DNA of 64,000 nucleotides, taken from assembly GCA_963739455.1 (NCBI GenBank), contig CAVUAK010000003.1:64001-128000 (forward strand), written 5' to 3'. Within the stretch, counting starts at the first letter, position 1. Each line of letters starts with the position of its first letter. The notes beneath the pieces are model-generated. The model was not told the DNA's origin and did not search any database. It worked only from the letters and a program-made list of their open reading frames with translations. A program made the position numbers and the translations under genes. Origin of the DNA: an uncultured Gemmatimonadales bacterium. Its GTDB lineage: Bacteria > Gemmatimonadota > Gemmatimonadetes > Gemmatimonadales > GWC2-71-9. Shown piece after piece: positions 1,946-23,085 of the stretch.

Positions 1946-2020
1946 AGTCGTCAGTCGTCAGTCGACAGTCGTCAGGCAGGGGACAGCTGACAGCTTTCTG
2001 CCGACTGCCGACCGATGACT
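1946..2020. repeat. Heptamer tandem repeat (AGTCGTC)n with an imperfect inverted arm (hairpin)
   Basis: agtcgtcagtcgtcagtcgacagtcgtcag ... ctgccgactgccgaccgatgact. Confidence 0.7.
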
Positions 2021-2025
2021 GTGGA

Positions 2026-2394
2026 CTAGTTCGGGGGATATTTCTGGAATATTTGTTGGACTGTCCGAATCCGCTCGGCGAAGTCCAGCAACGTCATGTC
2101 GTAGACGATGTCATCGCTCCCGCTCAGCGCGCCGAAGGCCGCTCCGGCAGTCCCCATCTGCATCTCCGACGCCTGGAACAGCCGCATTTCCTTGATCTCG
2201 CCCGCCTTCACCACACCGGTCGAGTCCGCCTGCCGGTAGGTCAGCTTGTCACCCTCCAGGCTGACCAGCCGGATGTCCCACAGCAACTCGTCGTTCTGGA
2301 GCGTGATTTGCCAGCGGTCAGCCTTGGCCTGGGCCGCCGACGGGGCAGGGGCCGCCAGGGCGGCCAGGAGTCCGAGCAGGATGAGCAAGCGCAT
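2026..2394 (-). CDS. Hypothetical secreted protein
   Basis: Signal-peptide-like MRLLILLGLLAALAAPAPSAAQA; coding-like ORF. Confidence 0.65.
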   Translation of the reverse strand: MRLLILLGLLAALAAPAPSAAQAKADRWQITLQNDELLWDIRLVSLEGDKLTYRQADSTGVVKAGEIKEMRLFQASEMQMGTAGAAFGALSGSDDIVYDMTLLDFAERIRTVQQIFQKYPPN

Positions 2395-2491
2395 GGGCCT
2401 CCAGTTGGGCTGCTCCTGCATCTTAGCCGTTTTCTTCCCCGACGGGCCGCTCTTGAGTTTCCCTCGGCCAGCGGGCACGTTTCGCGGATTG

Positions 2492-2564
2492 GGGGGCGTA
2501 GCTCAATTGGTAGAGCACGGGCCTTTTAAGCCCTAGGTTGTGGGTTCGAGTCCCACCGCCCTCA
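2492..2564 (+). tRNA. tRNA-Lys (UUU)
   Basis: GGGGGCG/CGCCCTC acceptor stem, GCTC/GAGC D arm, anticodon loop CTTTTAA, GTGGG-TTCGAGT-CCCAC T arm; CCA not encoded. Confidence 0.93.
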
Positions 2565-2752
2565 TGACAAGGCGGGCAAGGCGGTAGGGCGGGGAGGGCG
2601 GGGTGGCCCCCTCACTCCTCACGCCGTTGCTGTTCCTCCTCACGCTGTTTCGTCCGCCCCTGGTTCCTCCGCTTTTGGCTCCTCCGCGCTTGCTTCTTCC
2701 GCAGTTCCATTTTGCGCCGCATACTATATGTGGCTCCCTCTCCCCGGTTTCC

Positions 2753-3719
2753 ATGAACATCCTGTCTGACCGCCCCGTCTTCGCCGTCGATGGCGAGGTC
2801 TTTCATTGGGGTGATGTGGTGCTGCACGCACAGGCGAGTGGTCGCTGGGACGAGCTTCAGGCCGAGGCTCGCCAGGGCCTCGCCTGTGAGTCGCATTTTG
2901 ATACCATCGACGAGGACGGTGCCGAGGAAGCCATCGACGACGCGGCTGCCGAGTTCCGCTATGACCGCGAGCTCATCACCGCCGAGGAAATGGAGGCCTG
3001 GCTCCAGGCCAGGGGGCTCACGCCAGAGGAGTGGATGGGGTCCATTCGCCGCACCGTCCTCCGTCAGCTTTGGGCCGCCGACCTCGACGAGATCGTGGCG
3101 GAGCACCCCGTCTCCGACACGGAGCTCGATGAGGCCCTCCGCATCGACCTGCTCTGCTCCGGGGCGCCTCGCATCCTGGCCGAGGAACTGGCGGTCGAGG
3201 CCGCCGCGGCGGCCGCGGCGGCCGTGACCTCCCCGCCCTCCCCGCCATCTGACGACCGGCATGCCCTCCTGGCTGCCCTCCGCGCCCGCGCCGTCCGCTT
3301 CCGCCAGGAGGCCCTGGCCCCCGAGACCATCGCCCGCGAGGTCCAGTCCAACCAGATGGAATGGATCAGGGTCGACTGCCAGGCAATCGGCTTTCCCGAG
3401 GAAGGCCCCGCCCGCGAGGCGGCGCTCCTGCTGCGCGAGGACGGGCTCGACATCGAGGAGGTTGCCGGCGAGGCCGACGTGCCTATCGAGGATGTGGTGT
3501 TCTACCTCGATCAGCTCGACCCCGAACAGCACTCCCGCTTCCTCGGCGCGACCGTGGACGACGTCATCGGGCCAGTCCCGGTCGACGATGCGTGGAACGT
3601 CTATCTCGTCGTGGCGAAGGTGATGCCCTCCATCCAGGATCCGGAGATCGTCCGCCGGGCCGAGGAAGGGGTGCTCTCCCGGCTGCTCGCAGGCGAGGTC
3701 AACCGACGTGTACGGTGGC

Positions 3720-3733
<14 letters not shown>
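2753..3733 (+). CDS. Acidic PpiC/SurA-like (parvulin-type foldase-like) protein
   Basis: Helical SurA-like N-region and parvulin-like C-region (DDVIGPVPVDDAWNVYLVV); overlaps the PCAT start, as in cyanobacterial PPIase-HlyB-HlyD operons. Confidence 0.6.
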
Positions 3734-6943
<3,210 letters not shown>

Positions 6944-6947
6944 CAGC

Positions 6948-8183
6948 ATGAGCGGCGACGATACCGCCTTCCTCGAGTCCGATCCGCCGCACTGGGCCGC
7001 CCGCGGCCTCGGTCGACCTCATCATCGTGCTGTTCGTGCTCATGCTGCTCGCCGCGGTCGTGGTGCACGTGCCCGAGACGGTGTCGGGCCGGTTCACCCT
7101 GGTGCCCCTGCGCGGCACCGATCCGGTCCGGACCCCGCGGAAGGCGTCCTCACCGTCGTCGCGGTCCAGGAGGGCGAGCCGTCCCGGCCGGCGCCACCCT
7201 CTTCGTGGTTCGCTCCGCCGTCGGCCAGCCGATCGCACCTCCGACCTGCGCACCCTGCGAGACCCAGCTGCGCGGCCAACACCGAGCGCCTGCTCCGCAT
7301 CGCCGCCAGCCAGTACCGCAGCCCGCGCCGCGTCCGATTCGGCCGAAGGCCCGCCGGCTCCAGAGTCGCGAGACCTTCCTCGAGCGCCTGATCGCGTCCG
7401 AAGAGCCAGCGCCTCGCCGCTGATCCAGGAGCATCGCCGACAGTTCCGTGGCCGGTGCCAAGCGCGGCGCGCTCGGCACCGGCTCGACGTGCAGCCGGCT
7501 CGAGACTCGAGCCCGAGCCGCTCGAGCGAGGAGAGTCCAGACCGCCAACAACGACCTCGCGAGACCCGCGCCGACATCACGCGGCTCAAGCAGGACGAGG
7601 ATTGCCCGCGACCTCGAATACCGGCAGATCCGCGGCGCCTCGAGGAAGCACATGGACCACCGAGCGGATCCGCACCACGTCGCTGCAGCGCGACCCGGCC
7701 ACCATCAGCGACTGCGGCCTGGTCCTCACGTCACCCTGCGCCGGCACCATGCTCCGCCTCCGGGTCAACGCGCCCGGCGCCGTGGTGCAGCGAGGGCGAC
7801 ATCCTCGGCGAGGTGGCCTGCGCAGGGCGACCGGCTGCAGGCCGAGCTGGTGCTGCCCCAGGCCGGCGTGCCGCAGGTCCACGCCGGCCAGGGCGTGAAG
7901 CTCCGCTTCGATGCCTTCCCCTATCAGCGCTTCGGCGTCCAGTTCGGCACCGTGCAGTGGCTGGGGCCCGCCGGCGAGCGCCGGCACGGACCAGGGCGGC
8001 TTCCGCGCGCTCGTCGAGCTCTCGCCGCGACTCAGATCCGGGTGCAGCGGCAAGATGGCGGCCGCCTGCTCCCCGGCATGGGCGGGCGAGGCCGACATCG
8101 TGGTGGGCCGCCGCTCGCTGGTGAGCTACGCCTTCGAGCCGATCCGCGCCCTCAAGGAGATCTTCGCCGAGGTGCCGGCCCAC

Positions 8184-8187
<4 letters not shown>
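6948..8187 (+). CDS. HlyD-family secretion adaptor (frameshifted)
   Basis: N-terminal TM, coiled coil, [22 protein letters not shown]...[17 protein letters not shown]. Confidence 0.85.
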
Positions 8188-9202
<1,015 letters not shown>

Positions 9203-9216
9203 CTGCGAGTATCGCT

Positions 9217-9252
9217 GTCATCGCGAGGCCGCGCAGCGGCTTTGGCGATCCC
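9217..9252. repeat. GTCAT-type REP-like palindrome, copy 1
   Basis: GTCATCGCGAGGCCGC-GCA-GCGGCTTTGGCGATCCC; similar copy at 9633-9668. Confidence 0.65.
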
Positions 9253-9377
9253 GGTGCACCGGCACGGAGCCGCGTTTCGCTACCATGGTCCCATCTCGGT
9301 CCCATCGCAGGGTCTTGTTCTCGGGCCGCCACCTCTCTTCGCGGTGCGAAGTCATTGTGATTGCTGTGCGCACGGTT

Positions 9378-9393
9378 CGGCACAGCGATTGCT
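9378..9393 (+). promoter_or_regulatory. Sigma54 -24/-12 promoter for peptide 1
   Basis: cGG-CACAGCGATT-GCt: GG-N10-GC matching TGGCACN5TTGC; downstream of a sigma54 activator gene. Confidence 0.8.
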
Positions 9394-9449
9394 TTTCAAT
9401 CGGGGGTGACAACGTCGTCGGGACCCGTTTACCACCACTGGAGTACACC

Positions 9450-9563
9450 ATGGCCGCCAAGAAGAGCTCAAAGGTGAAGGATCTGCCCCGCAAGTCGGTC
9501 TCGTCGAAGAAGGCCGCGAACGTGAAGGGTGGTCGGAAGGCCGGCAAGGGTCAGCAGGAGTAG
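9450..9563 (+). CDS. Double-glycine precursor peptide 1 (37 aa) MAAKKSSKVKDLPRKSVSSKKAANVKGG|RKAGKGQQE
   Basis: GGAG RBS 9440-9443, ATG 9450, TAG 9561-9563; paralogous to peptides 2-4. Confidence 0.8.
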   Translation: MAAKKSSKVKDLPRKSVSSKKAANVKGGRKAGKGQQE

Positions 9564-9599
9564 CTGAATGGCGTTGGACAAGTTCCGGCATCGTTTCTC

Positions 9600-9628
9600 G
9601 GCCCGCTGACCTCTCAGGACAGCGGGCC
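9600..9628 (+). terminator. GC-rich hairpin after peptide 1
   Basis: GGCCCGCTG...CAGCGGGCC; no clear U-tract. Confidence 0.5.
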
Positions 9629-9632
9629 ATGT

Positions 9633-9668
9633 GTCATCGCGAGCCCGCGTAGCGGGCGTGGCGATCCC
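9633..9668. repeat. GTCAT-type REP-like palindrome, copy 2
   Basis: GTCATCGCGAGCCCGC-GTA-GCGGGCGTGGCGATCCC. Confidence 0.65.
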
Positions 9669-9814
9669 GTTGCATCGGCACGGAGTCGTTTCACTACCAT
9701 GGCTTCGGATCAGTACCACTGCTCGGCCCCATCATCGAACCATTCTCCAGGTCACCTGCACCGGTTCGTTCGCGAAGTCGTTGTCATTGCATCACATCCG
9801 GATTTGGCGCAGTT

Positions 9815-9830
9815 GGGCACAGCGATTGCC
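9815..9830 (+). promoter_or_regulatory. Sigma54 -24/-12 promoter for peptide 2 (and probably 3)
   Basis: gGG-CACAGCGATT-GCc, core identical to the promoter at 9378. Confidence 0.8.
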
Positions 9831-9889
9831 TTTCTATAGGGCAGGCAGAACTTCGCTGCCGCCTCGTTCACTACCACAGGAGATGCACC

Positions 9890-10000
9890 ATGGCCGCCAA
9901 GAAGAGCTCAAAGGTGAAGGATCTTCCGCGCAAGTCCGTCTCGTCGAAGAAGGCCTCGAACATCAAGGGTGGCGCGAAGGGTCTCAAGCCGAAGGCGTGA
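9890..10000 (+). CDS. Double-glycine precursor peptide 2 (36 aa) MAAKKSSKVKDLPRKSVSSKKASNIKGG|AKGLKPKA
   Basis: AGGAG RBS, ATG 9890, TGA 9998-10000; leader 26/28 identical to peptide 1, with extra synonymous changes. Confidence 0.8.
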   Translation: MAAKKSSKVKDLPRKSVSSKKASNIKGGAKGLKPKA

Positions 10001-10065
10001 GCAGCAGGCAATGATTGCTACGGGCTCGTTCACTGATTCCGTCAACGTTCTCAGGAGTGTTTCCA

Positions 10066-10164
10066 ATGGCTAAGAAGAATGCGCCCGTGCGCGACCTGCC
10101 CGAGAAGAAGCTCCCCGCCGGCAAGGCCGATCAGATCAAGGGTGGACGCAAGGCCCGCGACTGA
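10066..10164 (+). CDS. Double-glycine precursor peptide 3 (32 aa) MAKKNAPVRDLPEKKLPAGKADQIKGG|RKARD
   Basis: AGGAG RBS, ATG 10066, TGA 10162-10164; shares DLPxK...KAxxIKGG. Confidence 0.75.
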   Translation: MAKKNAPVRDLPEKKLPAGKADQIKGGRKARD

Positions 10165-10176
10165 ACTGAACCGCTT

Positions 10177-10209
10177 CGTGACCCGCTGGTCGTTTCACAG
10201 CGGGTTACG
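10177..10209 (+). terminator. Hairpin after peptide 3
   Basis: CGTGACCCGCTG...CAGCGGGTTACG. Confidence 0.5.
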
Positions 10210-10262
10210 GGCTGTCAGGAGCCCGCAGTCAGAGAAGTGAACCGTTCAACCACACGTGGAGT

Positions 10263-10415
10263 ATGGCCCAGAAGAAGCGCCGGAAGCCCGAGGAAAAGGC
10301 TCGCAAGAATGAGGTGGTCCTGCTCAAGGACCTGGCGCCGCGCACGGACGTGAAGGGCGGTGCAAAGCTGCGCTTCGGTGAGGCACCCTCCTCGACCGGC
10401 AAGGGGAAGGACTAG
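10263..10415 (+). CDS. Double-glycine precursor peptide 4 (50 aa) MAQKKRRKPEEKARKNEVVLLKDLAPRTDVKGG|AKLRFGEAPSSTGKGKD
   Basis: ATG 10263, TAG 10413-10415; KDL...VKGG motif; RBS spacing is short. Confidence 0.65.
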   Translation: MAQKKRRKPEEKARKNEVVLLKDLAPRTDVKGGAKLRFGEAPSSTGKGKD

Positions 10416-10506
10416 GCGGCAGAAACCTCCCCGCCCTCCCCGCCCTCCCCGCCTTGTGAGTAACTTCAAGCCAGACCAACAAGCTCCCTTTCGTCGGATC
10501 AAGTAC

Positions 10507-11415
10507 ATGGCCACCCCGTCAACTGCTCCCGCGCCCTCCAGGAATGCGCCCCGCGCGGGCCAGACCACCATCTGGCTCGACGGCGAATGGCACACCCGCG
10601 ATACGGCCAAGGTCTCGGTCTTCGATCACGGCCTGCTCTATGGCGACGGCGTCTTTGAGGGGATCCGCGTCTACGGCGGCAAGATCTTCCGGCTTGAGGA
10701 GCACATCGACCGGCTCTATGACTCGGCCCAGGCTATCTGGCTCACCGTCCCGATGCCGAAGGCCGAGATGATCGCCGTCACCGAAGAGGCCGTGCGCCGC
10801 TCCGGGATCACCGAGGCCTACATCCGCCACATCGTAACCCGCGGTGTCGGCGACCTCGGCCTGAGCCCGAAAAATTGCCCGCGCGCCACGGTCATCATCA
10901 TCGTCGACACCATCGCGCTTTGGCCTGCGGCCACGTACGACACGGGGCTTCGCGTCATCACCGCCGGCACCCCGATCCCGCATCGCGAGGCGCTGTCGCC
11001 GCGCGTGAAGTCGCTCAACTACCTGCCGCACATCATGGCCAAGAGCGAGGGCATCGTCGCCGGCATGGATGACGTGCTCATGCTCGACAGCGCCGGCTTC
11101 GTGGCTGAGGCGTCTGGCTGCAACATCTTCGTGGTGAAGGGGAAGTCCATTCGCACCCCGCCGGCGTTCGCCGGGATCCTCAAGGGGGTCACGCGCGACC
11201 TGGTCATCGACCTCGCGCGCGAGGCCGGCTACACCATGAGCGAGGAACAGCTCAACCGCTACGACATCTACACCGCGGACGAGGTCTTCTTCACCGGCAC
11301 CGCGGCCGAGGTGGTCGGCATCCGCGAGGTCGATGGCCGCCGCATCGGCGCCGGCAAGCCCGGCCCCGTGACGCACGACATTGCTGCCCGCTTCCGGGCC
11401 CTCACCCGCGGCTGA
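10507..11415 (+). CDS. ilvE: Branched-chain amino acid aminotransferase
   Basis: VSVFDHGLLYGDGVFEGIR, KSLNYL, ILKGVTR, EVFFTGTAAEV. Confidence 0.93.
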   Translation: MATPSTAPAPSRNAPRAGQTTIWLDGEWHTRDTAKVSVFDHGLLYGDGVFEGIRVYGGKIFRLEEHIDRLYDSAQAIWLTVPMPKAEMIAVTEEAVRRSGITEAYIRHIVTRGVGDLGLSPKNCPRATVIIIVDTIALWPAATYDTGLRVITAGTPIPHREALSPRVKSLNYLPHIMAKSEGIVAGMDDVLMLDSAGFVAEASGCNIFVVKGKSIRTPPAFAGILKGVTRDLVIDLAREAGYTMSEEQLNRYDIYTADEVFFTGTAAEVVGIREVDGRRIGAGKPGPVTHDIAARFRALTRG

Positions 11416-13020: not shown

Positions 13021-14801
13021 ATGCGTCGCCAAACACTGATCCTGCTGCTGGCGGGGGCGGTCGGCTGTGCCGGGAAGGCCACGGTACAACCCACGGCCCA
13101 GCCGTCGACGCAGGTCTCTGCTGCGACGCCCGGCAAGGTTCCGGTCAGTCCGGCTCCCGCCCCCGCCTCGATCGGCCCCCTCGACAGCAGCCAGGTTTCC
13201 AGCATCGCCCACAGACGTCAGCCTCTCGGCCGACTCCGCCGCCGACGAGGCGGTGCTCGACCAGCTGGCGGTGGCCCAGCCGGTCGACGTCGCCACCGAT
13301 GACGAACTGCCCCCGGTTCCCGTCTCCTGGGACATCGACGTCACCACCTGGGGCGATCACGAGCGGGTCCAGTTCTACCTGAGCCTTCTTCGAGGAGCAG
13401 GCGCATCCCCGCTTCCAGATCTGGATCGAGCGGATGCCGGTGTACGAGCCGATGATCCGCCAGAAGCTCCAGGCGGCCAACATGCCGACCGACCTGGTGT
13501 ACCTGGCCCTCATCGAGAGCGGTTTCTCCAACTCCGCCATCAGCCGCACCCGCGCCGTCGGCATGTGGCAGTTCATGCCCCGCACCGGCAAGGAGTACGG
13601 CCTCCGCATCGACAGCTGGGTGGATGAACGGCGCGACCCGGTGAAGGCCACCGACGCCGCCCTCGAGTTCCTTTCCGATCTCTATCAGCGCTTTGGTTCC
13701 TACTACCTCGCCGCGGCGGCGTACAACGCCGGCGGCGGCAAGATCTCGCGCGGGCTCAAGAAGGTCGGCGCGAAGCCCACCGTCAGCCAGGCCTCGTCGA
13801 CGGCACCGGTGGACGGCGAGGAAGCGCTCACGGAGGACGAGGACGAGGGCTTCTCCGACGCCGACTTCTTCAAGCTCTACGACACGAAGCACATCCGGCG
13901 TGAGACCAAGGACTACGTCCCCAAGCTCATCGCAGCGGCACGCATCGCGAAGGAGCCGCAGCGCTACGGCTTCCAGCCGGCGCCCCCCACCAGCCAGTTC
14001 CCGCTCGATTCGCTCATCGTGAGCGGCATGACCGGGCTCGATGTGGTCGCCCAGCTGGCCGACACGTCGCTGGAGCACATCCGCGATCTCAACCCGCAGT
14101 TCCTCCGCTACGCCACGCCGCCCGGCACCACGTCGATCGTGCGCGTGCCGCATGGCCGCCAGGCGTCGACCCAGGCTGCATACGACGTGCTGCCCGCGGC
14201 TGAGCGCGTCACCTTCGCCTACTACACTGCGAAGAAGGGTGACACCCCCGCCAAGGTCGCCCAGCACTACGGCGTGCCGGTGGGCGTGTTGTATGAGGCG
14301 AACCCGTGGATGCGCTCCGGCAGCGCGGTGAAGGCCGGCCGGCAGGTGGTGGTGCCCACGGGTGGCAGCGCCAGCGTGGTCGTGGCGCGGCAGGTGTCGA
14401 CGGTGCATGAGTCCCCCGACCGGGGCAGCAGCCGCGGCGGCTACCACACCGTCCGGAAGGGCGAGACCCTGGGCGGCATTGCCAGGAGCTACCACATGAG
14501 CACCGCGCAGCTCAAGTCCATGAATGGCATGCAGGGCAACACCATTCGTGTCGGCCAGAAGCTTCGCGTCTCCGGCAGCGCCAAGCGTCCCCCGGCGCAG
14601 GTTGCCTCCCGCGACCATGCCAAGGGTGGCGGCGCGGCCAGCGGTGGCAGCTCCACCGTCAAGTACAAGGTCCGGAGCGGCGACACGCTGACGGGCATCG
14701 CGAAGCAGCACGGCGTCACCGTCGCCTCCATCAAGCAGGTCAACAATCTCAGCGGTGGGCTCAAGGCCGGCACGACGATAAGGATTCCGAAGAAGGCGTA
14801 G
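13021..14801 (+). CDS. MltD-like lytic transglycosylase lipoprotein with LysM repeats (5' frameshifts)
   Basis: Lipobox AVGC, LALIESG, AVGMWQFM, AAYNAG, ETKDYVPK, LysM domains (HTVRKGETL, YKVRSGDTL). Confidence 0.88.
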
Positions 14802-16201: not shown

Positions 16202-17266
16202 TCAGCAAGCACCGCCACCAGCAGCTGCGGATTCACGTTGCCCTGTGCCGCCTCCTTCGCTGCCGCCACATGTCGCTGCGCCTCGAGCAATCGCGACACC
16301 GGTCGCGGGGTCCTGAGCGCGGCGAGGCAGTGCGCGGCGCGGCGTCATGCCGCTGGCGGCGCGTGCGGCATCGCCCAATGACTGCTCCAGCGCATCGAGC
16401 ATCGCGCTGAATTCTCCGCGGGCCGACCAGGTTCCCTGCTTCAGCACTCGCTCGGCCCGCGACACCGAACCTTGAAGTGCCACGTCCACCAGGTCGGCCG
16501 CTGCGGCATGCGCCTTGGCGCCCGCATCACTCGCGCTGATCGCAGCGCCGATCGACCCCTCGGCGGTGCGCACCCGCTCCTCCAGCGCCGCCGGTGACAG
16601 GGCCGGCTTCAACTCCGCCTCGAGGAACGCCCGCACCTCCGCATCCGTCAGTCGCCCCAGTCGTACCGGCACCACCCGCGAGCGAATGGTCGGCAACAGG
16701 CGACCCGCGTCCGTCGCGGTGAGGACGAACCAGGTATTCGCCGGCGGCTCCTCCAGCAACTTCAGGAGCGCGTTGGCGGCTTCCTGACTCGACTCCTGCG
16801 GCACCAGCCGCTCCGCATGCCCGATGATGAAGACCGTCGGGCCACCCTCGACTGACTTGAGCGCCGCCCGCCGCTGGATCAGGCGAACGGTGGCGAGCGG
16901 GTGACTCGCCATCCCATCGAGCGCACCATACAGCGGGCTCTTCCGCCGTTCGGCGATGATCTCGCCAATCAGTTCGGCCGCCTCATCCACCTGCTTGTCG
17001 GCATCGGTGGCCTTGGGCCTGAGGATCGGCACGATCCAGTGCAAGTCCGCATGTCCCAGATCCGTTACCAGGCGACATCCTCTACACTTGCCACATGGCC
17101 CCTGCTGCTCGCACAGCAACAGTTGGCCGAGCCACAGGGCGAGTCGCTGCCTGCCTACACCCTCAGTGCCCTCGAACAGGAGCACCTGGGGCATCCGTCC
17201 GCCCCGTACAGCATCCCCAAGCCGTTGCCGGACTGCCTTATGACCAATCAGGGGTGCCAGAGCCAT
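16202..17266 (-). CDS. holB: DNA polymerase III delta' subunit (C-terminal frameshift)
   Basis: CEQQGPCGKCRGC zinc motif, AANALLKLLEEPP, LLPTIRSR. Confidence 0.88.
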   Translation of the reverse strand: MALAPLIGHKAVRQRLGDAVRGGRMPQVLLFEGTEGVGRQRLALWLGQLLLCEQQGPCGKCRGCRLVTDLGHADLHWIVPILRPKATDADKQVDEAAELIGEIIAERRKSPLYGALDGMASHPLATVRLIQRRAALKSVEGGPTVFIIGHAERLVPQESSQEAANALLKLLEEPPANTWFVLTATDAGRLLPTIRSRVVPVRLGRLTDAEVRAFLEAELKPALSPAALEERVRTAEGSIGAAISASDAGAKAHAAAADLVDVALQGSVSRAERVLKQGTWSARGEFSAMLDALEQSLGDAARAASGMTPRRALPRRAQDPATGVAIARGAATCGGSEGGGTGQRESAAAGGGAC

Positions 17267-17564
17267 GAAGGAATATCGCTTGTTTCGGGCCAGAACGGAA
17301 GGGGCGAGAAATCGCGTAACCCATTGTTTGTCAACATGTTACAGTGACATTATGGCAAGCTTTGCTTGGAAAAGTCATGGTGCAAAGGTGCATGTTACGA
17401 TAGTGAATACTCGCATGCTTAGCAGTGGTCGGAACTGAGTTACCTGAGGCTCAAACCGCTTGTCGGAGAACCATTTGGGAGGGGGGTCAAAATGGCGCAG
17501 GTCCAGGCCGACAGACGGCGCATGGAAGCTCGCCCCGAGTGAACTATGCGAGCAAGCGCTCACA

Positions 17565-17580
17565 TGTGATAAAAGTCACA
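17565..17580. promoter_or_regulatory. CRP/FNR-family-like palindrome
   Basis: TGTGA-TAAAAG-TCACA, perfect TGTGA-N6-TCACA, in an AT-rich intergenic region. Confidence 0.5.
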
Positions 17581-17690
17581 AAACGGTCGGTCGAATTGTC
17601 GCGCTGAAACAGTAAGTGTCGCGACAGCACCTCGCGCAAAGGATGCGACCTTGCCCCCCTCTCCTGCGCTACTTAGGATTGGCTCCGCTT

Positions 17691-17763
17691 TCCCGAGTAG
17701 CTCAGTTGGTAGAGCAGCTGACTGTTAATCAGCGGGTCGCAGGTTCGAGTCCTGCCTCGGGAG
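17691..17763 (+). tRNA. tRNA-Asn (GUU)
   Basis: TCCCGAG/CTCGGGA acceptor, GCTGA-CTGTTAA-TCAGC anticodon arm, GCAGG-TTCGAGT-CCTGC T arm. Confidence 0.96.
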
Positions 17764-17782
17764 CTTCGATCTCGCACACAAC

Positions 17783-17808
17783 AAGAGGCCCGCTTTCGCG
17801 GGCCTCTT
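17783..17808. terminator. Intrinsic terminator, probably bidirectional
   Basis: AAGAGGCCCGC-TTTC-GCGGGCCTCTT followed by T-rich bases. Confidence 0.75.
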
Positions 17809-17836
17809 CGCTTTTCCTGCAGGTGCTTCGCCGTCG

Positions 17837-18211
17837 CTACTTGAGCCACAGGTAGAGACCGATCAATCCCATCACCAGTCCACCCACAGCGATTGCGGTT
17901 CCCGCACTGTCACCGATAAGCAGGCCGCCGATGAATGCGGCGCCACCCACGATCGCCAGCACCGGGCCAGTGCCACCCTTCGCGCGTCGCTGATCATTCC
18001 AGGTCATCTCCGTCGACGCATCGGCGACACTGCTGTATCCCACGGTCAGGCTCGCAATCGTGGGTCCGGCCGTCGGCGCTGCCGGCGCCACCGCCGGAAC
18101 GACATCGGCGAGTGCTGCATCGGGCGTGGCCATCTGCGCTGCGAGCGGCGATGCTACTGCACATGCGACGAGCGACAACAACTGCACACGAAGGCTGGAG
18201 CGCGTTGGCAT
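17837..18211 (-). CDS. Hypothetical protein with signal peptide and two C-terminal Gly-rich TM helices
   Basis: MPTRSSLRVQLLSLVACAVASPLAAQ...VLAIVGGAAFIGGLLIG. Confidence 0.6.
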   Translation of the reverse strand: MPTRSSLRVQLLSLVACAVASPLAAQMATPDAALADVVPAVAPAAPTAGPTIASLTVGYSSVADASTEMTWNDQRRAKGGTGPVLAIVGGAAFIGGLLIGDSAGTAIAVGGLVMGLIGLYLWLK

Positions 18212-18327
18212 AGGGGTCCGGTGTTTGATGTTGAACTGGGGTGCACTCGGTATACCGGCCAGGTCCCCAATCGTCTCGGAACCCTGTTCCCTGTTCCCTG
18301 TTCCCTCTTCTCCCTCACGTCCGCTTC

Positions 18328-18546
18328 TCAATCGAATCCGAGCGCGACGATCACCACGCCGAGCAGCGCTACCGCCAGGATCGTTGTCACCGTCACGATC
18401 GTCTTGAACAGGAAGCGATACTTCTCCGCGCGCCGTCGAAGATCGGCGAGTTCCACGGACGAGATCTGCTCCATGGGGACAGGTACCGCGGGCTGGATGA
18501 TCGCGGGCTCCACCACCGCGATGACGGCAGGTACGGTTTCGGGCAT
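18328..18546 (-). CDS. Small hypothetical membrane protein
   Basis: MPETVPAV...; C-terminal TM; follows the GNAT gene. Confidence 0.45.
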   Translation of the reverse strand: MPETVPAVIAVVEPAIIQPAVPVPMEQISSVELADLRRRAEKYRFLFKTIVTVTTILAVALLGVVIVALGFD

Positions 18547-18548
18547 GG

Positions 18549-19022
18549 TCAGAGATCCTTGAGGTAGTGCATCGTCTCCGGCGTGTAGCCGAGGTGCTCG
18601 TACAGCCCGCGGGCGCGCTCGTTCTGTGCCCAGACATTGAGCGAGATGCGGGAGAAGCCCCGGCCCCGGGCCCACGATTCCGCGGCGTCCATCAGCGCGC
18701 GCGCCACGCCACGTCCCCGCGCGGCCGGATCTACCGCGAGCACCTCGACGTGCGCCAGCGGCTCGTGCGTGAAATAGTCTACCTGCGTTGTCAGGCATGC
18801 GACTCCATCGAGGCCGCCCGGCCCGTCGGCGACGAAAGCGACGGTGCCCGGCGACTCGCCATGAAGCGCCTCGCGAATGATGCCATCGTCGGCTCGCTGG
18901 ATCTCGCGCGCCGTGCGCCAGGGCGGTACCGGAAACGCCGAGAGCTGGTCGGCTAGCGACAGTGCTGCCGCCTCGTCGGCCCGAACCCCACGTCGCACGA
19001 CCACCACCGCGCGTTCCGTCAA
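18549..19022 (-). CDS. GNAT N-acetyltransferase
   Basis: LAVDPAARGRGVARALM, NERARGLYEHLGY. Confidence 0.85.
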   Translation of the reverse strand: MTERAVVVVRRGVRADEAAALSLADQLSAFPVPPWRTAREIQRADDGIIREALHGESPGTVAFVADGPGGLDGVACLTTQVDYFTHEPLAHVEVLAVDPAARGRGVARALMDAAESWARGRGFSRISLNVWAQNERARGLYEHLGYTPETMHYLKDL

Positions 19023-21499: not shown

Positions 21500-23085
21500 T
21501 CAGTTCCCCTTGACCGGCTTCAGGTCGAGGTCCTGGAAGTCAAAGCTGAAGTCCACCTCCGGCGACGCCGGCAGCATCTTGATGCTCGCAATGTTGCCGT
21601 CGGGATCCAGCGTGAACGTGACATACGCATCCGCCCGCACCTCGCGATCCGTCCAGCGCGCCACGAACGTGTCGTACTGCCAGTGCTCCAGCTTGCCCAC
21701 CAGCACCGGCGAATGGGTGAACCGGATCATCAGCTGGCCGTTCTCGTCGGTAATCGCGACGTCGCCATACCAGGGATCGCGATAGGTACCGGCGTACTTG
21801 GCGAGGGGAAGGGACGGCTTGGAGTCGGCATTCCGCGCGCTCGCCGATGCCTTCATCTCGGCGGCGTTCGCCGAGTCGTTGCGTGCCTGTACCCACTTCC
21901 ATGCACCGAGCCAGTCGAACTTCGCCCCCATGTAATAGTCGAGCACATGCAGCGTGATCGCCCGGAACGCCGGGCCCGACTCGGCGTTGGTGAACACCGC
22001 CACGCCCAGGCGCAGGTCCGGTACGGTGCTCACCTCCGACACGAATCCCGGGCAGCCCGCCGGTGTGCTCCGCCACCTTGTAGCCCCGGTAGTCGCTCAT
22101 GTTGAGGCCCAGCGCGTAGCCCCGGAAGTTGGCCCGGAGCGGCGCGAGCTCTGGTGGCGGCGGGTTGTTGCCGAGGATGGTCACCGGCATCCACAGGGCC
22201 CGGGCGGTGCGCGTGGTGTAGAGGGACGTGCCGTCGGACTTCCGGCCGGAGTCGGCCATGATCATGAGCCACTTCGCTTCGTCGGTGGCGTTGGTCATGA
22301 TGCCACCCGCCGGGTTCGTCGCGGCGCTGGTGTCTGGCCACACCGGCTTGAGTGTGCCCTCCACCACCGCATGGGGCGACGCGAGGTTGCTGCGCTGGTC
22401 GGGCGTCGGGTAGTGCGAGAAGCTCGTCGTCATCCCCGCCGGCACCAGGATGTTGCTCGCGCACGAACTCTTCCCATGGCTGTCCCGACACCGCCTCGAT
22501 CAGCTCGCCCGCGACCACGTACAGCACGTTGTCATAGGCATAGCTGTAGCGGAAACTGGTGGCCGGCTTGATGTACTTGAGCTGCCTGGCGATCTGCGCC
22601 CGGGTGTAGTCGGACGCCGGCCACCACAGGAGGTCACCCGCGCCCAGGCCCAGTCCGCTGCGATGCACCAGCAGGTCGCGCACGGTGATTTCGCGCGTCA
22701 CCCACGAGTCGTACATCTGGAACCATGGCAGGTAGTTCGTCACCGGGGCGTCCCACTCGATCTTGCCCCGTTCCACCAGCAGGCCGAGCGCGAGCGAGGT
22801 GAACACCTTCGTGTTGGAGGCAATGCCGAACAGCGTGCCGGCGTCCACGGGCGTCGGGTCGCCGAGGCGCCGGACGCCATATCCCTTCGCGACGATCACC
22901 TTGCCATCCTTCACGATCGTCAGCGAGATGCCGGGGACCCCGAATGCCTTCATCACCGAGTCGACATACTGGTCGAGTCCGGGTGGCACCCCGGCGGGCG
23001 CCGTGGCCGGCTTGGACTTCTGGGCGTGCAGGGACACAGGGAGCGCGAGCAGTGCGATGGCGAGAAGCCGGGCGATCCGGGTCAT
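21500..23085 (-). CDS. Beta-lactamase-family serine hydrolase with DUF3471 (frameshifted)
   Basis: IASNTK (SxxK), YAYDN, HTGG, YAGTYRDPWYG, LEHWQYDTF. Confidence 0.88.

Follow-up and report, generated by a model that had tools for sequence, protein, structure and literature searches.

A putative peptide-export cluster of an uncultured Gemmatimonadales bacterium, with a nine-residue core matching the type VI protein Hcp

What could a bacterium export from four genes of 32 to 50 codons lying between a transcriptional activator and a branched-chain aminotransferase gene? We analyzed this question in a stretch of 64,000 nucleotides from an uncultured Gemmatimonadales bacterium (hereafter, the window). 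An earlier note on this DNA had read the four genes (P1 to P4, Table 1) as paralogous precursors with conserved cationic leaders ending in GG and hypervariable cores. Each gene has an ATG start with GGAG upstream; in P4 the GGAG is only 1 nt from the ATG, which makes a poorly spaced ribosome-binding site. The exact proteins are all present as called genes in a public protein collection. Judged from sequence, the four genes are real, and so is the break at GG in P1, P2 and P3.

Table 1. Features of the cluster and its borders, in positions of the window
Feature	Position	Strand	Description
tRNA-Lys(TTT)	2492-2564	+	left border of the cluster
SurA/PrsA-like (PpiC-related) acidic chaperone	2753-3733	+	326 aa, net charge -40, intact
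Peptidase-containing ABC exporter	3720-6943	+	two cNMP-binding domains, C39 peptidase, ABC membrane and ATPase domains; frameshifted in the assembly
HlyD-type membrane fusion protein	6948-8187	+	orthologue in locus L017 matches HlyD_3 and TIGR01843; frameshifted in the assembly
Sigma-54 enhancer-binding activator	8184-9202	+	without N-terminal sensor domain; 336 aa in kin; GAFTGA intact; frameshifted in the assembly
57-nt palindromic repeat, copy 1	9216-9272	+	left end of the P1 cassette
Sigma-54 -24/-12 box of P1	9378-9392	+	upstream activator-site repeats partly degenerate
P1	9450-9563	+	37 aa; 28-aa Lys-rich GG leader, 9-aa core RKAGKGQQE (core 9534-9560)
Hairpin past P1	9600-9628	+	probable terminator (function inferred)
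57-nt palindromic repeat, copy 2	9632-9688	+	right end of the P1 cassette
Sigma-54 -24/-12 box of the P2-P3-P4 unit	9815-9829	+	three ACCA-type repeats about 85-135 nt upstream
P2	9890-10000	+	36 aa; P1-type leader, variable cationic core AKGLKPKA
P3	10066-10164	+	32 aa; GG leader, 5-aa core RKARD
P4	10263-10415	+	50 aa; contracted GG motif, conserved core start AKLRFGE; single copy
Branched-chain aminotransferase ilvE	10507-11415	+	right border, outside the system

Four small genes of three kinds

The anatomy of the first three genes bears out what had been read from the letters alone. The leaders of P1 and P2 are identical at 26 of 28 residues and the two peptides diverge directly past GG, while P1 to P3 have hydrophobic residues at -4 (V or I), -7 (A) and -12 (V or L). 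The GG pair at the leader ends (G27, G28) is invariant in the leader alignment. The leaders are Lys-rich, with a net charge of +4 to +8, and the cores are polar, net positive and 5-17 aa long; all four lack Cys. In P4, position -4 is V, whereas -7 and -12 hold R and K, and this peptide does not have the pattern of a conserved leader with a break at GG.

A search with P1 returned 26 homologues, P1 and P2 included, which are relatives and not independent observations. Their leaders have a mean identity of 94%, as against 16% for the first six core residues. All 26 cores are distinct, 23 of them are 6-9 aa long (the random-frame null is 0.06-0.09 per sequence), and Lys makes up 19% of the core residues versus around 1.3% in random frames. 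With 26 distinct cores on one leader, the histone-like alternative raised in the earlier note, with the whole peptide conserved and no break at GG, fails. The leader codons differ by 75 synonymous and 24 non-synonymous changes (15 pairs, 6 genes). A profile of 32 leaders retrieved 167 proteins among 1.84 billion representatives (150 of the 167 are listed).

The claim of hypervariable cores stands for P1 and P2 and falls for P4. Orthologues of P2 carry 14 distinct cores in 23 loci. Those of P3 are semi-variable: all 20 cores are 5 aa long and 12 are distinct. In the orthologues of P4, the first seven core residues, AKLRFGE, are identical in 17 of 18 related loci. Even where the cores are distinct, the term should not be taken to imply diversifying selection. 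Codon positions 1-2 of the leader are 98% identical, and the DNA of the P2 core (0.59) is as divergent as the DNA past the stop codon (0.60; shuffled, 0.53). Hence, diversifying selection is not shown, and the cores point to limits on length and charge only.

P1 to P4 are thus not equivalent, but three different kinds of thing. The reading as GG precursors holds for P1 to P3, given their Lys-rich leader, their break at GG and the adjoining C39 exporter. P4 is a conserved peptide tied to the activator, and the ESM Atlas groups it only with unnamed clusters (at 0.92).

Most cores on the P1-type leader family have no Pfam match at all. Single weak matches of other cores were to DUF1559 (E 0.004, core P0147) and to a PAAR-like domain (E 0.14). 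Among the proteins with leaders of this family (P0121, P0170, P0097, P0031, P0061, P0088 and P0094), the recurring features are a core motif containing NHN, precursors built of several cassettes in which the leader is repeated, and, at the C-terminus, a LLLPAVQKVREAAAR piece that we take to be DUF1559-like. A likeness of the KTKHDT-type cores of related loci to a type III needle was not confirmed: the best Pfam match was to the HrpA pilin (E 0.6) and no needle was found among the PDB matches.

The cluster, its promoters and its relatives

Upstream of the small genes lies the probable export machinery. The protein encoded by the first gene matches TIGR04500 weakly (E 5e-5, 22.8 bits against a cut-off of 180 bits; 20.7 bits in kin) and Rotamase_2 also weakly. 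Its predicted structure (pLDDT 92) has SurA, PEB4 and PrsA as best Foldseek matches, at E 1e-5 to 1e-3 and low TM-scores of 0.2-0.3. The exporter orthologue in locus L017 is intact, with 1068 aa and every domain above cut-off; the catalytic Cys and His motifs are present in kin and readable in the window. The C39 domain of the cluster is the only one found in the genome, just as P1 to P4 are the only GG-leader genes of this kind found there, and the genome carries TolC-family genes and sigma-54. We found no tailoring enzyme from tRNA-Lys to ilvE (2492-10507) and no receptor or sensor kinase in the cluster. No immunity gene was seen in the cluster, nor any conserved extra open reading frame from activator to ilvE in kin; an immunity gene may still lie at a distance or be very small. 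The search for structured RNAs at 2000-11000 gave the tRNA alone, and no sigma-70 promoters were found.

The net charge of the chaperone is -34 to -40 in the closest relatives, which have strongly basic leaders, and -16 in another genus (g8). Several leaders of g8 are more acidic, so that chaperone and leader charge may co-vary.

Three of these genes are frameshifted in the assembly. Relative to a same-genus genome, there are 38 non-triplet indels in the exporter, 43 in the HlyD gene and 11 in the activator, with 0, 1 and 0 in-frame stops, respectively. The indels are mostly single-base insertions and the third-position bias is kept in all three. Hence, the frameshifts look like long-read consensus error; the three genes are intact in same-genus genomes. 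Further genes of the window are apparently split by frameshifts at 894-1878, 13067-14801 and 21500-23085 (presumably biotin synthase, a LysM lytic transglycosylase and a serine hydrolase), which fits patchy assembly error.

The SurA-like gene is present in 9 of 11 same-genus genomes and in 24 of 401 genomes of the phylum, a tally that includes the unpublished genome G181. In the related genome regions examined, the gene order of the cluster is unchanged and the genes are intact. We had considered that the whole cluster might be a recent island at tRNA-Lys, and rejected this because same-genus genomes carry the cluster before ilvE. Elsewhere in the window, a tRNA-Asn(GTT) lies at 17691-17764, at a dip in GC content.

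Related loci differ in their contents. One of them without the activator (L026) has LanB and LanC genes and a Cys-containing precursor (6485-8513 and 16826-18988, minus strand); LanB and LanC are confined to it among the related loci examined. In genus g8, the interval between chaperone and exporter holds extra GG peptides with helical-looking cores (L032:6826-8093 and L025:13851-14859, both minus strand). Over about 20 aa, one such core shares 80-100% identity with the very C-terminal end of the proteins in a large unannotated family. This family gave 477 matches, with the shared end in 120 of 120 among the matches listed; its N-termini are mutually unrelated and many have apparent signal peptides. 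A protein of about 360 aa with a Cys motif adjoins the peptide arrays on the opposite strand in several related loci (L025:5807-6895, L030:11533-12615, L026:14001-15083), and the L025 copy has no Pfam or NCBIfam match.

The promoters of P1 and of the P2-P3-P4 unit appear to depend on sigma-54. Of 34 distinct upstream regions, 31 contain a -24/-12 box, and ACCA-type motifs, which are probable activator sites, are repeated farther upstream. A genome scan for the box together with the upstream motif gave six sites; apart from the P1 and P2 promoters, none of them looks genuine, and a wider sigma-54 regulon was not supported.

The activator has no sensor domain, since its AAA+ domain begins at residue 24 in the orthologue, and P4 is a candidate for the missing control. 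A P4 profile matched in each of the 15 activator-bearing kin loci that reach far enough. Three further activator-bearing loci end too early; two of these genomes have P4 on another contig and the third lies outside the sample. P4 is absent genome-wide from all four exporter-bearing genomes without an activator orthologue. Across the phylum, 18 of 401 genomes (17 without G181) have a single copy of P4, and all of these are among the 24 with the SurA-like gene. The genomes being kin, this co-occurrence is a lead. Most likely, P4 acts in trans as a regulator of the activator and would be removed or cut by the exporter, which we liken to export-coupled regulators such as FlgM or ExsE. For comparison, the sensor-less activators PspF and HrpR/HrpS are described, in the available part of the source, as controlled in trans by PspA and HrpV (PMC7057263). 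They share with the activator of the cluster an architecture of AAA+ and helix-turn-helix only, with GAFTGA intact, whereas the candidate trans-regulator here, a GG peptide of 50 aa, is itself likely to be a substrate of the exporter.

The P1 cassette and its Hcp-like core

P1 appears to be an addition to the cluster. From the activator stop to the P2 orthologue, 22 of 22 related loci have 204-214 nt and no P1 cassette, whereas the window has 687 nt. Subtracting the 416-nt unit that bears P1 and one 57-nt repeat leaves 214 nt, the spacing of the kin. Hence, P2-P3-P4 are the usual set and P1 an added, separately promoted cassette. The palindromic repeat at its two ends has four copies in the genome, the other two being at C1:124124 and C1:1266739, and may have mediated the insertion. 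We rejected the idea that P1 is a fresh tandem duplicate of P2: their upstream 80 nt are 72% identical, while those of P2 share 80-93% identity with the corresponding DNA of its orthologues from other organisms.

The core of P1 is an exact match to Hcp residues 87-95 (by the commonest numbering) in a clade of soil bacteria, a likeness that the earlier note had missed. Taken alone, this 9-mer is not significant against an independent profile of Gemmatimonadota Hcp (p 0.06), and the link of P1 to Hcp therefore rests on its longer relatives. Two leader-profile proteins, among the matches listed, have P1-like core starts, RKAGKGQQEYLK and RKAGGTQQEYLVIKMNDVIVT; the core of the latter matches positions 81-105 of the Pfam Hcp model (E 0.031) and solved Hcp chains (E 0.02-0.09). 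The P1 core is also the start of longer cores in P0172, P0173, L047 and L060, and versions of the Hcp piece of 21-72 residues follow unrelated GG leaders. A set of 25 full-length Hcp proteins shares 88-96% identity with the 24-aa core of L047; 24 of these contain the exact 9-mer, which is circular as a frequency since the query contained it. At the long end of the series, P0198 has a similar cationic leader and the entire C-terminal half of Hcp, above the Pfam cut-off, and another protein joins a long leader of a different type, which we take to be Nif11-like, to 33 residues from the same Arg of Hcp. At the short end, P0175, from another dataset, has a P1-type leader followed by RKAGKPQQEL. 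Its independent occurrence implies that the short form is not a one-off error. Across several phyla, RKAGxxQQE persists in forms trimmed to 9-15 aa, which would be expected if a short motif were being recognised.

Scanning GTDB genomes with a pattern for the junction of GG and RKAGxxQQE gave 24 matches, 7 of them GG-leader peptides. We discarded the other 17, namely 16 chance matches in one unrelated enzyme-like family (which we take to be carboxymuconolactone decarboxylase-like) and one junk frame. The seven come from Ca. Cybelea, two Alphaproteobacteria, two Actinomycetota, a Gemmatimonadaceae and an Acidobacteriota; one adjoins the same chaperone and exporter and one lies near a C39-type ABC gene. 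The GG-RKAG junction recurs in four phyla. Other parts of Hcp were found as well. With a profile of 30 Gemmatimonadota Hcp, 6 of 135 cores scored at least 5 bits (cores of at least 8 aa from the leader-profile set, leaving out the false peptide L041_2585), as compared with 0.01 per shuffled set. These six tile Hcp positions 11-29, 38-63, 68-86, 87-108 and 125-140. The GG peptide of L026 has a core that matches positions 68-86. The cores of P2, P3 and P4 as Hcp pieces had no support on either profile (P4, p 0.25-0.56). Taken together, the sequence comparisons show that the P1 core is of Hcp origin.

The Hcp piece is not the usual cargo of the system, since an Hcp core occurs in only 2 of 28 P1-leader proteins and the GG-RKAG junction in 1 of 401 genomes of the order. 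We found no match to PF05638 (Hcp) in the genome, which is 84% complete, and none in five same-genus genomes. In the phylum, Hcp is present in 49 of 401 genomes (G181 included), and three GG-peptide genomes of genus g8 carry their own. Counting on the alignment with 1y12, the Gly of RKAG aligns to Gly90 of P. aeruginosa Hcp1. According to the available text of PMC11011275, Gly90 is one of two Hcp1 residues that were changed to cysteine, cross-linking stacked rings into tubes; hence, the copied loop likely lies near the ring-stacking face. Compared with Hcp, P1 retains nine of about 160 residues and has them behind a type I export leader, and its genome yielded no Hcp.

What the cluster may export

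The cluster shares several traits with systems in which a peptidase-containing exporter cuts and secretes GG-leader substrates, such as class II bacteriocins, microcins and the export of streptococcal pheromones: the leader with its hydrophobic positions (in P1-P3), the C39-ABC exporter with its catalytic Cys and His, HlyD, TolC-family genes in the genome, and a conserved leader with a variable core. It differs by its Lys-rich leaders, cores of 5-17 aa, control by sigma-54, one core copied from Hcp, and a cluster with no immunity or sensor-kinase gene seen. Unlike modified RiPPs (lanthipeptides, NHLP or Nif11 products), it has no tailoring enzyme and no Cys in the cores. In its machinery the cluster matches the cyanobacterial bacteriocin groups I, II and VI of Wang, Fewer and Sivonen (2011), as they appear in the available text of PMC3140520. 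They also have a C39 exporter of the long type with a cNMP domain (CAP_ED), HlyD, a SurA/rotamase-like protein and arrays of small precursors. Set against that description, the present cluster has two cNMP domains, a dedicated sensor-less sigma-54 activator and ultra-short cores, and its cationic leaders match neither NHLP nor Nif11 models. HetC of Nostoc PCC 7120 is another C39 exporter; the available text of PMC10986499 states that HetC requires its N-terminal cNMP domain in vivo and that this domain binds ppGpp in vitro, and proposes that HetC exports a signalling peptide. There, no GG substrate is given as known near HetC, whereas four candidates adjoin the exporter here.

A literature search, limited to the main texts of open papers, turned up nothing on GG peptides derived from Hcp or on a cluster of this kind, and a term search of the main text of PMC12219008 gave no mention of Gemmatimonad- or Hcp; the precursor tables in the supplements of PMC3140520 and PMC12219008 could hold related peptides. 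What the analysis adds is the minimal 9-mer Hcp core, the arrival of its cassette in a lineage in which we detected no Hcp, and the link between P4 and the activator.

We favor the reading that the cluster exports unmodified micropeptides as extracellular signals or mimics, with P1 adding an epitope of Hcp, and give it a probability of about 0.5. We infer expression, cleavage, export, chaperone binding, gating, the role of P4 and every target as follows. The sensor-less activator would drive two sigma-54 promoters, for P1 and for P2-P3-P4. The acidic SurA-like protein would probably hold the cationic precursors, and the C39 exporter, gated via its two cNMP-type domains, would cut them past GG. 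The cores would then leave through the exporter, HlyD and a TolC-family channel. P2 and P3 would yield strain-variable cationic 5-9-mers, and the P1 core would be a captured and trimmed Hcp loop (87-95), shown to whichever receptor or partner would ordinarily recognise Hcp. Removal of P4 by the exporter would make transcription follow export. In a wider and more tentative version, for which we would offer clearly less than even odds, a modular system of soil and freshwater bacteria would capture pieces of foreign injection or appendage proteins (Hcp here; PAAR-like and DUF1559 in relatives), trim them to the minimal recognised motif and secrete them, so as to deceive or warn the cells by which such machines are sensed or built. 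Its output would be coupled to export via a GG-peptide regulator of the sigma-54 activator.

The contrast between leader and core can also be read the other way round, with the leader as the product. Cleavage would then free a conserved, strongly cationic 27-28-mer within the cell, and its target would be the activator, the chaperone or nucleic acid; the cores would be expendable short basic tails, and the Hcp piece would be a recombination passenger. Such a role would account for conservation that spans the full 28-aa leader (98% at codon positions 1-2), for core DNA as divergent as DNA past the stop, and for the many cores without a Pfam match. However, the length and Lys content of the cores are far from those of random DNA. 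Moreover, the recurrence of the Hcp junction after unrelated leaders in four phyla, with RKAGxxQQE kept, and of other Hcp pieces too, is unexpected of passengers, and we consider the reading unlikely. A direct attack on the type VI machinery is less likely still: P1 and its longer relatives would be exported inhibitors that bind Hcp rings or their partners and block the stacking of tubes in attacking neighbours. In its favor, the copied loop holds the glycine aligned to Gly90 of P. aeruginosa Hcp1, a ring cross-linking position in the available text of PMC11011275. Also in its favor, no Hcp was found in the producer (84% complete) or in five same-genus genomes. Yet type VI tubes are assembled in the cytoplasm of the attacker, and a 9-mer is short for a stable interface. 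The three GG-peptide genomes of g8 have their own Hcp, and most cores on the P1-type leader are not Hcp-like.

An ordinary cluster of the class II microcin or bacteriocin type, with short cationic cores that are antibacterial, would have the net positive cores seen here and an architecture like that of GG-leader bacteriocin exporters in the available text of PMC3140520. But cores of 5-17 polar residues, together with a cluster in which no immunity or tailoring gene was seen, suit it poorly. P1-P4 have no curated precursor match, with none in Pfam and no bacteriocin family near its cut-off in NCBIfam (best bactofencin A, E 0.24, 11.7 versus 35 bits), and we give this explanation little credence. 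Least probable of all, in our view, is a decaying cluster in which the exporter, HlyD and activator genes are pseudogenes, with P1 as the truncated remnant of a longer Hcp piece. The 92 non-triplet indels over the three genes suggest as much, as do the degenerate activator repeats upstream of P1 and its TAG stop, which falls where relatives have Tyr or Phe and is followed by a Leu codon as in Hcp. This is countered by the consensus-error pattern of the indels (mostly single-base insertions, 0-1 in-frame stops, third-position bias kept), by the intact genes of same-genus genomes and by equally short forms elsewhere (P0175, L044, L064).

The cores behind GG leaders are usually treated as free to evolve, and that of P1 is instead an exact piece of a type VI protein that was not found in the producer. 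The recurrence of the Hcp junction across phyla, graded from half of Hcp to nine residues, points to a receptor or target for this loop of Hcp. The cluster also supplies neighbouring candidate substrates for a presumably cNMP-gated exporter, which are lacking at HetC, and offers a candidate export-coupled regulator of sigma-54 transcription.
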